A stretch of 64,000 nucleotides of DNA from Candidatus Firestonebacteria bacterium RIFOXYD2_FULL_39_29 (GCA_001778375.1 MFGV01000018.1:47022-111021), one strand, 5' to 3'. Positions 36,001 to 42,000 are shown, counted from the first letter of the stretch. The notes: generated by a model not told the origin, from the sequence alone. Made by a program: numbers and translations.

Positions 36001-39000
36001 CATTATATGTCATCCCGGCAGTATTCCTCCAGGTGTCATCACCAAGCTGGCTGTTTGAAACAACAGGATTAGCCGTATCCTTTTTCACGTAGAAAGCATC
36101 CTGCAGCGTCGTAGTGATTCCGGCATTATCTGTTACCTTTACGGAGATATAATTTATACCTTCCTGTAAAGAAGTAAAATCAACCGTCCAGTCGATTGAA
36201 TACGAAGATGCGTTAATAGAAGCAGCAATCGCTGTCCAGTTTTTCAACATACTGCCGGTCTGTCCGGTTCCGGAATAAACGGAATAGGAAGCGGTATTAA
36301 GGAGCGAGCCGCCTGCATCCGAGAAATCAACATTGTACGCCGTACCCGCCGCAATTCTCCAGGTATTATCCCCCGTTTGATTATTTGTTATAACCGGGAC
36401 CTGTGTGGCTTTCTTTACATAAAAAGCATCCGGTAACGAGTTGGTATTACCGGCATTATCGTATACTCTTACAGAAACGTAATTTGTGCCCTGCGCGAGA
36501 GTGTTAAAATCCACCGTCCAGTCAGTTGTATAGGAAGAAGAATTTATACTTGAAGCAATATCCGTCCAACCTATAATAGTTGACCCGGTCATACCGGTAG
36601 AGCTGTAAACCGAGTACTGCGCGTTCGCTAAAAGCGAATTTCCGGTATCGGCAAAATCTACATTATAAGTCGTACCTGCTGCAGTCCTCCAGGTATTATC
36701 CCCCGTCTGGTTATTTGTAAAGGTCGGATTTGCAGTATCTTTCTTTATATAGAAAGCATCGGTCAGCGACACGGTATTTCCGGAGTTATCATAGACCCGG
36801 ACCGAAACATAATTACTCCCCTGCTGTAAGGAAGCAAAATCCACCTGCCAGTTAGAGGTGTAAGTACCGGCGTTTATTCCCGTCGCAATATTAGTCCAGG
36901 TAATCACGGTAGCTCCTGTCTGACCTGTCGCCGAGTAAACAATATATTGAGCAGAAGACAGTAACGAGGTCGAGTCATTAAAGTCAATATCATAGGAAGT
37001 TCCCGCTGCAGTCCTCCAGGTATTATCTCCCAGCTGATTATTTACAATACCGGGGTTGCCCGTATCTTTTTTTATGTAAAATACATCATTAGAAGAACCC
37101 GTATTACCCGCATTATCGTAAACCCTGACCGACACGTAATTAGTTCCCTGCTGCAAGGCGGTAAAATCAACCTGCCAGTCAGAGGTGTAGGTAAGAGTAC
37201 TCATATTGGTGGCAATGCTTGTCCAGGTTTTTAATTGTGAACCGGTCTGTCCCGTTCCTGACCAGACGGAATACTCTGCGTAATTTAACAATGAATTTCC
37301 TGAATCCGTAAAGTCAACATTATACGCCGTACCGGAAGCAGTCCGCCACGTATTATCTCCAGCCTGATTATTTGCCACAGCCGGCGCCTGCGTATCTTTT
37401 TTGACATAGAAAACATCATTCGTCGTTGTAATAATTCCCGCATAATCCGCTGCCTTGACCGAGACATAGTTCGTACCCTGCGCCAGTGCGGCAAAATCCA
37501 CCTGCCAGTCAGCAGTGTAAGCAGAAGCATTAATACCCGAGGCAATATTCGTCCAGGTAACAATGGTGGTACCGGTCTGCCCGGTTCCCGAAAACACAAT
37601 ATATTGGACCGTATTCAAAAGCGAAGTCGTATCCGAGAAATCGACATTGTAGGACGTCCCCGCTGAAGTTCTCCAGGTATTATCCCCTGTTTGATTATTA
37701 GTTAGGACAGGACTGCTTGTATCTTTCTTAACGTAGAAAACATCAGCCGACTCAGCAGTGTTCCCGACACCGTCGTATACTCTGACCGAGACGTAATTTA
37801 TCCCCTGCTGCATCGCGGTCCATACCCCGGCAGGCAGAGCCCAGTTGGCAGTATAAGAACTTCCGGCGATCCCGCTTGCAGCCGTACTCCAGTCGGCAAG
37901 CATTGTACCTGTTTGACCGGTAGAAGACCAGACCTTCACCTGAAAATACGAAAGTAAAGAGCCGCCGGCATCGGAGAAATCAACATTATAACTTCCATTA
38001 TTGGAAGTGCGCCACGTATTATCCACAGCCTGATTATTAATTATTGAAGGAGGCGTAATATCATGTTTATCAAAAGCCACTCCGAAACATTCGTATGCCG
38101 CGTCCGAAGCTGCAGTATTATGCGCGGTACCTCCGACCCAGGCTGAACCCGTCCAGTTACGCGATTTTATATTTCCGTTCGTATCAAGACCCACAAGGGT
38201 CATTTTATTAGTATTGGGGTCAGAGTATAGAGACATAATACGAAGGACTGACGGCCAGATATACGTATCCTTGGGCGCCACCGACGGCGTAGTTGACCAG
38301 CCGCCGGAAGTCCAGGTAATATAACTGAACTGCGTGGCAGAAGCATCGACAGCTACAAAAACTGCTTTTCCGGAATCTTTTTCCCATGCAACATCCGCAC
38401 ACCTGTAAGTACTTGCTGCCATAGTAGAATCTTCAGCAGGTAAAGCACCCCAAGCACTGCCGTTCCAGATACAAGTATTCCAGTCAGCAGAGCCGTCATG
38501 ACTTGCAAAAGCTATATTATTTGAACCCGGTTTTGTATCAGCAGCCAGACGCACCCAGTTAAGCGTCGAAGCAGTATCAGGCGCTGCGCCTTGGACGGCC
38601 AGCCAGCTGTTCCCGTTCCAATAATCATACATAGGAGTGTTGCCATCGCCAAAAACTATCATACAATTTCCCGAAGTTGTCTCCCAGGCAATATCATAAC
38701 ACTGCCTTGTTGCAATAGAAGCGGAAGCAGTCAGAGTTTTTCCGTTTGCAAACGAAGAACCATTCCAGATCATTGCATAAATATCGGAATTCGCATCCAA
38801 AGTTGCAAGCGCAAGTGTTTCCGCGCCCGTCTTCGGCTCTAATCTTACCCACCGTACAATTCCGGTAGTAGCCAGTTCAACCGTAGTTTCATTAGCCCAA
38901 ACACTTCCGTTCCAAACTCTACAGCCTATTTCATTCGTTGTTGTCCCCTTCGAGTAAACGACAACACAATCACCGGTACTCCGCTCATAAGCAACATCAA

Positions 39001-42000
39001 AACCCCTGTAAATATTATTCACAGAACCTATACCCGTGTTTGTAAACTCCGTCGTCCACGTGGAGGTTTGCCCGTTCCAGCGCAGTATTGACAAAGTCCC
39101 GTCGGAAGAAAGAACCCCTGCTATCTTTTCATTTCTGACCACGGGGCAGGATTTAACCGCAACCCATCTTATACTTCCGGTAGCGTTGGAGGCATTCAAC
39201 TGAGGATCCCAGGCGGAGCCCGTCCAGTTCATATACCTCGGGGCAGCATTTGTACTATCGCCGTACATTATAACTCCCGCAGCCGCGCCGGGCATTCCGG
39301 AAGTAGCCGAGCTCGAATTTGAAAGGCCCGAAGTATTCGGCACTTCATCATAAGCTTTAACGGCGAAATAATAAGTTGTATTTGAAAGAGGCATGCTCAA
39401 AACCCTGCTCTCTCCCGTTCCTGCCGGCTCCGGTACAAAGTTCTGGGCATAAGTTGTCGCATTACCCCAGTCCGTATCATTGTTTATCTGGCCTGAAACA
39501 GAATATTTAATTGTATACCCCCCGTTTGCCGGAGATTGAAGGTTACCCGAACTTCCGTTATCACCGGGCGTAGTCCAGGTCAGAATAACCTGTCCCGGAT
39601 AATCGCCTGTTACCGCATTCAGATTGGTTATAGCAGAAGGTGCAGTCGTATCAGATCCAGTAAGAGCAAAATTACCCGTAAGATTTGATATTGCTCCATA
39701 ATTGCCTGCTTTGTCATATGCTTTTATGGCAACGTAATAGGTCAATGCAGGAGTTAGTCCAGTTAACACATGATTTTCCGAAGAGCCGGCGCTTGAAGCT
39801 CCCCAGGACTGGCTGTAAGCTGCCGCTGAATTAAAATCATTATCAGTTCCGGTAAAATTACCGGAGGTCTTAAGTTTTACCAGATAACCGGAAGGAGTTC
39901 CGCTTGCCCCGTCATCCCCCGGCGCAGTCCAGGAAACATTTATTTCTCCTTCAAGGCCGGTAGAAGCTGCAAAATTGGTGACAGAAGCAGGAGCCGTGGA
40001 ATCTTTTTTTACGTAAAAAACATCATTGAGTGACGAGTTGTTTCCGATAAGGTCATACGCCCGGACAGAAACATAATTTGTCCCTTGCAAAAGAGAGGCA
40101 AAATCAAGTGTCCAATCAGAGGTATAGGAAGAGGCGTTGATTCCGGACGCAATATCCGTCCAGTCCTTTAAGACTGAACCCGTCTGACCTGTTGCCGAGC
40201 AAACTTTGTACTGAACATAGGAGAGGAGTGCCCCGGAGTCGGAAAAATCCACATTGTATGTTGTTCCTGCAGAAGCTCTCCAGGTATCATCTCCGGATTG
40301 ATTATTGGTAATGGACGGAGCAGCAGTATCCTTTTTTATATAGAACGCATCGGTTAAACTCTGAGAATTCCCGGCGTTATCGGTAACTTTTACCGTTATA
40401 TAATTGACACCCTGTTGTAACGCGCTCCAAGTCGAGGCATCCAAGCCCCAGTTGGAAGTATATGAAGAGACATTCAACCCGCTAAGCTGGATGGTCCAGT
40501 CCTTCATCAGGCTCCCTGTCTGCCCGGTACCGCTGTAAACTTTCGTTTCAACCTGAGAAAGAAGCGCTCCACCGGTATCCGACAGATCAAGATCATAAAC
40601 TCCGTCATTTATACTTCTCCAGGTGTTATCCCCTGTCTGGTTATTAGTAATAGAAGGATTAGTACTGTCTTTTTTTACATAAAACACATCTTCCGATATT
40701 AAGCTCCCGCCCGCATTGTCAGTTATCCGTACTGAGACATAGTTAGAACCCTGAGAAAGAGAGGTAAAATCAACGGCCCAGTCGGTAGTATAAGAAGAAG
40801 CATTTATACCTGAAGCAACAGCCGTCCAGTCCTTATTCATTATCCCGGTTCTGCCGGTAGCCGTCCAAACCGAGTATTCGGCGGCTGCAAGTAATGAACC
40901 GCCGGCATCAGAGAAATCAACATTGTAAACCGTACCCGCCGCGCTTCTCCAGGTATTATCACCCGCCTGATTATTTGTAACGGAAGGAACCGTGACATCT
41001 TTTTTTACATAGAACGCATCCGTAAGCGTTTCCGGATTCCCCGCATTATCATAAACACGGACGGAGACATAGTTCGTCCCGGAAGAAAGAGAAGCAAAAT
41101 CGACAGACCAATCCACCGTGTAAGTTGAGGCGTTTATAGCCGAGGCAATATTTGTCCAGCCGATAATCGTCGAACCCGTAAGTCCCGTGCCGCTGTAAAC
41201 CGCATACTGCGCGCTTGCAAGAAGACTTCCGTTATCCGAAAAATCAACATTGTAAACAGTTCCTGCCGCGCTTCTCCAGGTATTATCACCTGTCTGATTA
41301 TTCGTAACCGAAGGAACCGTGACATCTTTTTTTACGTAGAACGCATCCGTAAGCACCGCAGAATTTCCCGCATTATCATAAACACGGACGGAGACATAAT
41401 TGATCCCCTGCTGCAATGAAGAATAATTAACCTGCCAGTTTGTTGTATATGAAGCCGTATTAATATTTGTGGCAATAGTCGTCCAGGTAACCAGCTGGCT
41501 TTCCGTTTGTCCCGTTCCCGAATACACGGTGTACTCCGCATAATTAAGATTAGAACTTCCGGCATCGGTAAAATTAACGTCGTACGCCGTTCCGGCCGTA
41601 TTCCTCCAGGTATTATCTCCCGCCTGACTGTTTAAAATAGAAGGAGCAGTCAAGTCCACTACAGTGGAGCTTTCCGGACCGGTCGAAGAAGACGGAGGAT
41701 TTGTTTCATCCGTATTTCCGGCAAGGTCAAAAGCAACAGCCCTGAAACCGTAAACGCTCGCGGCTGAAGCCGTAAAAGCAACCGGGCTTGTCGTAAAGTC
41801 ACCGTAACTTGTCCAGGTATAAGGCGCACCGTTACTTGACGTATAATAAAGCCTGACATAATCTATTCCCGAAGGTGAATCCGAGGAAGAAAACGCAACG
41901 TTGAAAGTCAGTGTACTTGAATTAGTCGGGGAAGAAGCCGCAGCAGAAGGGCTCACCGTATCCTTCTTTACATAAAATGCATCTTTTAACAGAGTAGTGT

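Follow-up and report, generated by a model that had tools for sequence, protein, structure and literature searches.

A stretch of 64,000 nucleotides from Candidatus Firestonebacteria bacterium RIFOXYD2_FULL_39_29 (GCA_001778375.1 MFGV01000018.1:47022-111021; the whole stretch is called the window here) contains a giant gene whose 9,347-residue product carries, in two places, a segment with eight evenly spaced tryptophan motifs. What does such a segment fold into, to which family does it belong, and what might it bind? An earlier note, made from the sequence alone, had proposed an eight-bladed, tachylectin-like and possibly carbohydrate-binding head displayed on a stalk. We find that each segment is confidently predicted to be an eight-bladed, velcro-closed beta-propeller made of four two-blade units, that it belongs to a large family without a name, and that it probably serves binding at the cell surface.

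A tryptophan-motif segment occurs twice in a giant protein

Both segments are encoded on the minus strand, as translation makes plain, the plus-strand reading of the same coordinates being rich in stops. Each contains eight motifs of the form [W/Y]-[NTSD]-[GS]-x-x(1-3)-[W/F], spaced 49, 55, 49, 49, 51, 51 and 53 amino acids (aa) apart in copy 1 and 49, 55, 49, 49, 51, 51 and 54 aa apart in copy 2, which bears out the earlier count of eight regular motifs. A stricter version, W[NTS]G[SQTA]x[WF], has five occurrences in each copy and none elsewhere in the giant protein (7,737 aa); among 20,000 shuffled versions of copy 1, only 267 contained it at all, and none more than twice. A local hmmsearch with the family profile recovered exactly two full copies (aa 3887-4293 and 7612-8019), 58% identical in alignment, each within an ~800-aa supermodule of FN3 and propeller (aa 3601-4399 and 7324-8125; 58-59% mutual identity in chunked self-comparison). 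The two segments proposed earlier are thus real, but their limits needed correction: the first range, 38060..39350, took in ~21 aa of the FN3-like module that precedes the propeller, whereas the second, 26905..28200, cut off the last ~9 aa together with the closing strand (revised limits in Table 1).

Each segment is predicted to be an eight-bladed propeller

AlphaFold2, run on each copy separately with a 30-sequence alignment, returned all-beta models with a predicted local distance difference test score of 91.9 and a predicted template modelling score of 0.92 for copy 1, and of 91.4 and 0.93 for copy 2. The strand positions in these models are compatible with eight blades of four strands, and the ring is closed in blade 1, where the C-terminal strand (domain residues 401-405) joins three N-terminal strands (residues 4-31) in a velcro closure. 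Both models therefore agree with the eight blades suggested earlier, and they show a repeated architecture rather than a non-repetitive fold.

The real period is a unit of ~100 aa comprising two blades and repeated four times, the units being 17-31% identical within a copy. Across the family, type I blades have the consensus '.....WV.L...P.SDEI.L...D...DL....WNGS.WG' and type II blades '....R.FD.AYE..SG.ALVVY........YR.W.GS.WS', and comparison by hhalign shows the two types to be related (probability 91.8%, E 7e-7). This alternation accounts for the 'IRWV' and 'N-x-I-A-x-A' strands that had been placed ahead of each motif: they belong to type I blades, as their strands A and B, and precede only every second motif; before the others, type II blades have 'R-x-F-D-V-A-Y-E-x-x-S-G ... 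V-V-Y' in their place. Shared by every blade is the W-x-G-S-x-W motif, which in the models spans the turn from strand C into strand D, covering the last residues of the one and the first of the other, and so makes up the C-D hairpin. Hairpin 4 is the most conserved in the family (W 97%, G 97%).

The propeller represents a large unnamed family with adhesin and pilin architectures

A profile search of 1.84 billion cluster representatives returned 4,739 proteins at E ≤ 1e-3, of which 1,887 reach E ≤ 1e-30. In contrast to this abundance, searches with the domain, the family profile and a single-blade profile against Pfam (E up to 10), NCBIfam and PDB sequences gave no meaningful match, in line with the earlier statement that no named family was recognised. 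The homologs, too, lack Pfam coverage of the propeller, save for sub-threshold DUF2510 matches at the hairpin, and a preprint on giant genes (10.1101/2023.11.21.568195) does not describe the domain. The domain family is therefore large, falls in no Pfam or NCBIfam family and has no PDB sequence match; what is new is the family, whereas the fold is very common and no new principle is involved.

Several candidate matches were discarded. Antibody heavy chains found by phmmer with the domain against the PDB (E 0.0025-0.18) were judged to be chance, as were hemolysin and ecotin, the only PDB matches of the single-blade profile, among which there was no lectin; the full-domain profile found a single marginal PDB match, Epx1, at the level of a hairpin. 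A faint PF26696 ('PTL_trimer') match on homolog P0002 was considered irrelevant.

Of the 178 members retrieved, 100 have lengths of 700 aa or more and 55 carry two full copies; the extreme cases, both metagenomic, are P0033 (7,926 aa) with 11 full tandem copies and P0034 (6,719 aa) with 9, more than half of each chain being propeller. In 37 multi-domain members the partners are fn3, FG-GAP, VWA, Laminin_G_3, PKD, several Big_ families, CARDB and TSP3, and the sole enzyme domain is one Peptidase_M23. Partners of this kind are adhesin modules, and domain content thus points to an extracellular adhesin context for the propeller.

Many stand-alone members of 520-630 aa begin with pilin-type segments. 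P0174 scores above the cutoffs of both N_methyl (25.4 bits) and TIGR02532; in P0001 the match is to the N-terminal portion of GspK, the tip pseudopilin (E 9e-9); and further members have matches to PilX_N, archaeal Pilin_N or Class_IIIsignal, all sub-threshold. Such stand-alone homologs have the make-up of modular type IV pilins, which the giant protein of the window, with its signal-peptide-like rather than pilin-type N-terminus, does not. Three of the seven examined genomic contexts of stand-alone members are type IV filament clusters: in P0025 and P0017 the gene follows the small minor-pilin genes, N_methyl and GspH-like, and has T2SSF in its vicinity, and in P0005 it comes right after T2SSE and T2SSF and ahead of two N_methyl pilin genes. 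Separately, the gene for P0001 has as neighbours a GH15-like gene and two genes with alpha-L-fucosidase domains (L001 5914..11786), which in this one case hints at a connection with glycans.

Named members come from Candidatus Saccharimonadales, Bathyarchaeia and Micrarchaeia, one archaeal member being called a 'flagellin-like protein' by the Joint Genome Institute. When genomes were scanned by tblastn with the two window copies as queries, the nearest relatives were two copies on one Candidatus Firestonebacteria contig (54-57% identical), which lie ~11.2 kb apart as in the window, followed by metagenome-assembled genomes of Elusimicrobia (37-45%). For a propeller on a minor pilin there is a precedent by analogy in host binding: in the Saccharibacteria strain TM7x, the PilX-like minor pilin PilX2 carries a C-terminal RCC1-type propeller and is required for host binding (PMC12206443).

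A conserved and a variable face suggest a surface-binding propeller

The beta-meander topology of the predicted strands, which is not measured geometry, puts the A-B loops, the C-D loops and both chain termini (in blade 1) on one face and the B-C and D-A loops on the other. Conservation divides along the same line. Over 230 non-redundant domains, conservation is highest in the A-B and C-D loops, at 1.9-2.1 bits per column, and lowest in the B-C and D-A loops, at 1.1-1.2 bits; these latter loops also take up most insertions. The conserved face bears the W-x-G-S-x-W hairpins together with 'Y-E-x-x-S-G' and 'P-x-S-D-E' A-B loops. Only two polar features recur on the variable face: type II blades have an Arg where strand A begins, and type I blades have a D-x-[NDS]-x-D turn within their B-C loops. 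The turn appears across the family as D-x-[NDS]-x-D-[LIV], with Asp at 48-68%, and in copy 1 at domain residues 164-168, 264-268 and 368-372 (aa 4048-4052, 4148-4152 and 4252-4256). These loops could form a candidate metal or ligand site.

A small comparison, of four sequences over 109 positions, namely the two window copies and the two copies of the related Candidatus Firestonebacteria contig, gave a further sign of a split between the faces. Copy 2 is 63% identical to its positional equivalent, other pairs being at 55-58%, and in the B-C and D-A loops it is 64% identical to that equivalent versus 36-49% in paralogous pairs; the strands and the remaining loops show no division between orthologs and paralogs. 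These alignments suggest that the duplication is old and that the variable face may be under copy-specific constraint, as expected for a specificity surface, and they suggest that the two copies recognise different targets.

Taken together, we favour, at a probability of about 55%, a surface-binding or adhesion propeller of a large unnamed extracellular family, in which the tryptophan hairpins act as scaffold rather than as a sugar pocket. The two propellers would be adhesion modules that project sideways from a long rod of immunoglobulin (Ig)-like and FN3 repeats. Because each is internal to the chain and has both termini in the same blade, it should hang sideways off the rod, and because the chain enters and leaves on the conserved face, the topology implies that the variable face should point away from it. 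The head on an Ig-like stalk that the earlier note envisaged can be kept in part: the chain of Ig-like and FN3 domains is there, but the propellers lie at ~41% and ~84% along it and form no terminal head. The W-x-G-S-x-W motif would make a tight C-D hairpin in every blade, as part of the conserved face, and this face would be a scaffold with a role like that of the Asp-boxes in sialidase-type propellers. In sialidases, Asp-box hairpins sit on the face opposite the functional site. The ligand-contacting surface would then be the variable face, where B-C and D-A loops surround the opening of the central channel, and the ligand most likely a glycan or protein on another cell or particle.

Several points weigh against this interpretation. 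Four of the seven examined stand-alone homologs lie outside pilus clusters. The contrast between orthologs and paralogs is clear only for copy 2, copy 1 standing at 50% versus 36-49%. Finally, in the fucose lectin RSL a hairpin of the same W-x-G-x-x-W type binds the sugar directly, its Trp acting with Arg17 and Glu28 of the neighbouring blade, so the conserved face could be the functional one.

Lectin, docking and enzyme readings are less probable

The last point leads to the strongest competitor, a multivalent lectin of RSL, AAL or PLL type, in which pairs of hairpin tryptophans and residues of neighbouring blades would form 4-8 shallow inter-blade sugar pockets and the conserved face would bind a common glycan, for instance a deoxy- or methylated sugar. 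Foldseek, whose score combines local structure and sequence, ranked the seven-bladed Photorhabdus PHL/PLL lectins first (E 3e-10, target-normalised template modelling (TM) score 0.64-0.69), followed by AAL-type and RSL fucose lectins and sialidases (E ~2e-9 to 6e-8); target-normalised TM scores of the lectin matches were about 0.5-0.69. PHL binds sugars between its blades with Trp stacking (PMC5584973), so a lectin mechanism stays within reach for the window domain. The 'W-D-G-x-G-W' hairpins of RSL, taken from its PDB sequence, moreover have the same spacing as the window motif. At the level of sequence the likeness fades: hhalign gave blade profiles only 8-12% probability against RSL blades, with just ~19 residues around the hairpin aligned, and homology to RSL blades was rejected on that basis; in this alignment the Trp pair is present but Arg17 is replaced by Val and Glu28 by Tyr of 'YRxW' (family consensus 'LVVY...YRxW'). 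The Foldseek check for lectin propellers that had been proposed earlier thus came out divided, since PLL/PHL, AAL and RSL did rank first but have six or seven blades and do not reach significance in profile comparison. The carbohydrate-binding proposal itself keeps the structural ranking and the Trp pair in its favour, with the low hhalign probability and the lost fucose-binding residues against it, and we regard it as possible but distinctly less probable than the scaffold reading. The more specific label of a tachylectin-like repeat does not hold: tachylectin-2 and PVL were not among the matches listed, and the domain is neither five- nor seven-bladed.

We consider it improbable that the domain is a structural or protein-docking platform rather than an adhesin; it would then be an oligomerisation hub, a rigid node or a docking site of the WD40 kind. 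Over the whole structure, the models do match WD40-type interaction propellers best (Rsa4, Notchless, TBL1XR1, Cdc4 and Fbw7). Foldseek against viral structures gave generic propellers only (TM about 0.5). The global topology of the models is that of a generic eight-bladed propeller, with blades most like those of Trp-rich lectin and Asp-box propellers. In pilin-fused homologs the domain might be a filament-priming cap, as the PilY1 C-terminal propeller is, and in the homolog clusters the gene occupies the last place of the minor-pilin group, the place that PilY1 takes in type IVa pilus operons. For the giant protein, a possible docking partner is the product of the next gene downstream in the window, a PQQ-propeller protein with a type IX secretion sorting tail.

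An enzymatic propeller (sialidase- or glycosidase-like, a lyase or a cofactor-binding protein) whose active site lies where the central channel opens is very improbable, since nearly all conserved residues, the polar ones included, recur in every two-blade unit, a pattern that fits a scaffold or multivalent sites but not a single catalytic centre with unique, asymmetric residues, and since searches of Pfam, NCBIfam and PDB sequences matched no enzyme family, the Asp typical of an Asp-box is missing from the hairpin and the partner domains are adhesin modules.

Returning to the surface-binding propeller, a wider generalisation can be offered only tentatively, and we think it rather unlikely: that the family is an unrecognised class of multivalent carbohydrate- or cell-surface-binding propellers common to Bacteria and Archaea, borne on type IV filament tips or strung along giant adhesins, and a general means of attachment for uncultivated lineages, some perhaps episymbiotic or predatory (Firestonebacteria, Elusimicrobia, Saccharimonadales, Bathyarchaeia and Micrarchaeia), with the Trp hairpins or the D-x-N-x-D loops providing 4-8 ligand or metal sites per domain.

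A family of thousands of sequence clusters that is absent from Pfam, NCBIfam and the PDB is an annotation gap. Naming it would make many 'hypothetical proteins' recognisable as surface-binding proteins, including the 11-copy giants and the pilin-like proteins of candidate phyla and archaea, and the link with type IV filaments supplies a testable candidate for an adhesive pilus tip in lineages where cell-cell attachment is central. For the window itself, the analysis shows where the probable interaction modules lie within a surface protein of 9,347 residues. The family merits a domain definition and a name, although this is not a new kind of system.

Architecture of the giant protein and neighbouring genes

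The bulk of the giant protein consists of dozens of tandem repeats of ~110 aa, 55-80% identical to one another in chunked self-comparison, which have weak Ig-like Pfam matches (Glucodextran_B and Big_13); its other Pfam matches are fn3, LTD, PQQ_2 and Beta-prop_ACSF4. Its first 700 residues (48839..50938, minus strand) have no Pfam match at E ≤ 0.01 and may be another uncharacterised module or an anchor. Besides the FN3 domain of Table 1, a second FN3-like stretch (aa ~3790-3880) probably abuts propeller copy 1 directly, and in family member P0036 an fn3 / Pur_ac_phosph_N domain stands immediately ahead of the propeller. Two LTD stretches lie between the last Ig-like repeats and a C-terminal propeller that is unrelated to the two eight-motif copies, which gives the protein three propellers of two families.

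Copy 1 holds 8 of the giant protein's 33 cysteines within 410 aa (domain residues 47, 107, 122, 196, 208, 272, 296 and 400), five of the positions being common to copy 2; Cys196/Cys208 and Cys107/Cys122 lie on neighbouring strands of the model and could form disulfides. Despite the N-G-S within the motif, the two copies show no enrichment in N-glycosylation sequons (8 and 6 versus 5.8 and 4.9 expected). Base composition along the giant gene is unremarkable. Antisense open reading frames (ORFs) of 83-176 aa occur inside it (28859..29389, 26671..27075 and 38591..38842, all on the plus strand) and are most likely chance; short alternative-frame ORFs within the gene were judged spurious.

The Por_Secre_tail on the PQQ-type protein encoded downstream suggests that the organism has a type IX secretion system. 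The next protein, which combines 23S_rRNA_IVP with PorV / UPF0164-like signals, is an unusual fusion, and a 23S_rRNA_IVP gene is also found near the pilin-fused homolog P0025. The TMEM260-like / PMT_2 protein, a putative glycosylator, might modify the Ig-like repeats.

Table 1 Features of the giant gene and its surroundings, in window coordinates.
Feature	Coordinates	Strand	Residues and remarks
Giant ORF	22895..50938	-	9,347 aa; from the ORF list
Propeller copy 1	38057..39286	-	aa 3885-4294; eight four-stranded blades
Copy 1 hairpin 1, WTGSAW	39209..39226	-	aa 3905-3910; blade 1, strands C-D
Copy 1 hairpin 2, WNGQTSTW	39056..39079	-	aa 3954-3961; blade 2 (type I)
Copy 1 hairpin 3, WNGSVW	38897..38914	-	aa 4009-4014; blade 3 (type II)
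Copy 1 hairpin 4, WNGSSF	38750..38767	-	aa 4058-4063; blade 4 (type I)
Copy 1 hairpin 5, WNGNSW	38603..38620	-	aa 4107-4112; blade 5 (type II)
Copy 1 hairpin 6, WNGSAW	38450..38467	-	aa 4158-4163; blade 6 (type I)
Copy 1 hairpin 7, WTSGGW	38297..38314	-	aa 4209-4214; blade 7 (type II)
Copy 1 hairpin 8, WTGSAW	38138..38155	-	aa 4262-4267; blade 8 (type I)
Propeller copy 2	26879..28111	-	aa 7610-8020; 58% identical to copy 1, same strand pattern
Copy 2, span of eight hairpins	26960..28051	-	
Copy 2 hairpins 1-4		-	aa 7630 WSGSAW, 7679 YDGLTNSW, 7734 WDGTSW, 7783 WSGSVW
Copy 2 hairpins 5-8		-	aa 7832 WNGSIW, 7883 WTGAAW, 7934 WTSAGGW, 7988 WTGSAW
FN3 domain upstream of copy 1	39698..39985	-	aa 3652-3747; Pfam fn3 E 1.8e-6
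Two LTD (lamin-tail) stretches	~25574..25876 and neighbouring sequence	-	aa ~8355-8600; Pfam E 2.5e-21
C-terminal propeller, PQQ_2 / BamB-like and Beta-prop_ACSF4	22898..23971	-	aa ~8990-9347; E 8e-16 and 4e-35
PQQ-type propeller protein with Por_Secre_tail (type IX secretion C-terminal sorting domain)	20537..22786	-	749 aa; E 1.3e-7; directly downstream of giant gene
Protein with N-terminal 23S_rRNA_IVP four-helix bundle and weak PorV / UPF0164-like outer-membrane signals	18738..20450	-	570 aa; 23S_rRNA_IVP E 7e-32
TMEM260-like / PMT_2 protein O-mannosyltransferase with C-terminal TPR repeats	16549..18666	-	close to giant gene

Comparison with known systems

The PLL / PHL 'bangle' lectins of Photorhabdus (PDB 5c9o, 5mxe and 6rgr) resemble the window domain at the level of the fold only. 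They are soluble proteins with seven W-motif blades of one type, whereas the window domain has eight blades of two alternating types and is a module of a giant adhesin and, in homologs, of pilins; no PLL-family chain appeared in phmmer or profile searches of PDB sequences at E ≤ 10. In RSL, BambL and AAL, too, a W-[DN]-G-x-x-W hairpin links strands 3 and 4 in every blade (Foldseek E ~2e-8 to 6e-8 for AAL and RSL), yet they have six blades, in RSL as a trimer of two-blade monomers, in place of eight; besides the insignificant homology of blade profiles, there was no Pfam lectin family at E ≤ 10 and no PDB match to place the domain among them.

Asp-box (BNR) propellers such as those of bacterial sialidases likewise have a conserved G-x-x-W hairpin between strands C and D. 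Their motif is S-x-D-x-G-x-T-W on six blades, whereas the window domain, with eight, has the consensus [YA]-x-x-W-N-G-S-x-W, which lacks the defining Ser and Asp and has Trp for Asp, and it gave no BNR match in Pfam at E ≤ 10. Pfam DUF2510, a short 'RYWDGxxWT' repeat, yields sub-threshold hairpin matches in several family members (E 0.002-2); it describes a 35-aa motif rather than a propeller, and the matches cover only ~15 residues of hairpin and always stay below the gathering score.

Other propellers are more distant. Rsa4 / Notchless, TBL1XR1, Sqt1, Cdc4 / Fbw7, Bagel8 / Ika8 and cytochrome cd1 are 5-12% identical to the window domain; these WD40-type, designed and other eight-bladed propellers are intracellular or periplasmic and follow another repeat logic, a WD40 repeat spanning two blades, and the Pfam search gave no WD40 repeat signal. 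PQQ, PQQ_2 and PQQ_3 did not match the domain either, in contrast to the separate C-terminal propeller of the same protein, which matches PQQ_2 as given in Table 1.

Closest in setting are the pilus tip propellers of PilY1 and of TM7x PilX2. These are other propeller families, hepta-bladed (PMC12206443) and without a sequence match to the window domain, which gave no profile match to the PilY1 C-terminal propeller, and the window copies sit in a giant protein that is not a pilin. Like them, however, homologs of the window domain are also carried on PilX/GspK-like or prepilin N-termini and end minor-pilin clusters.

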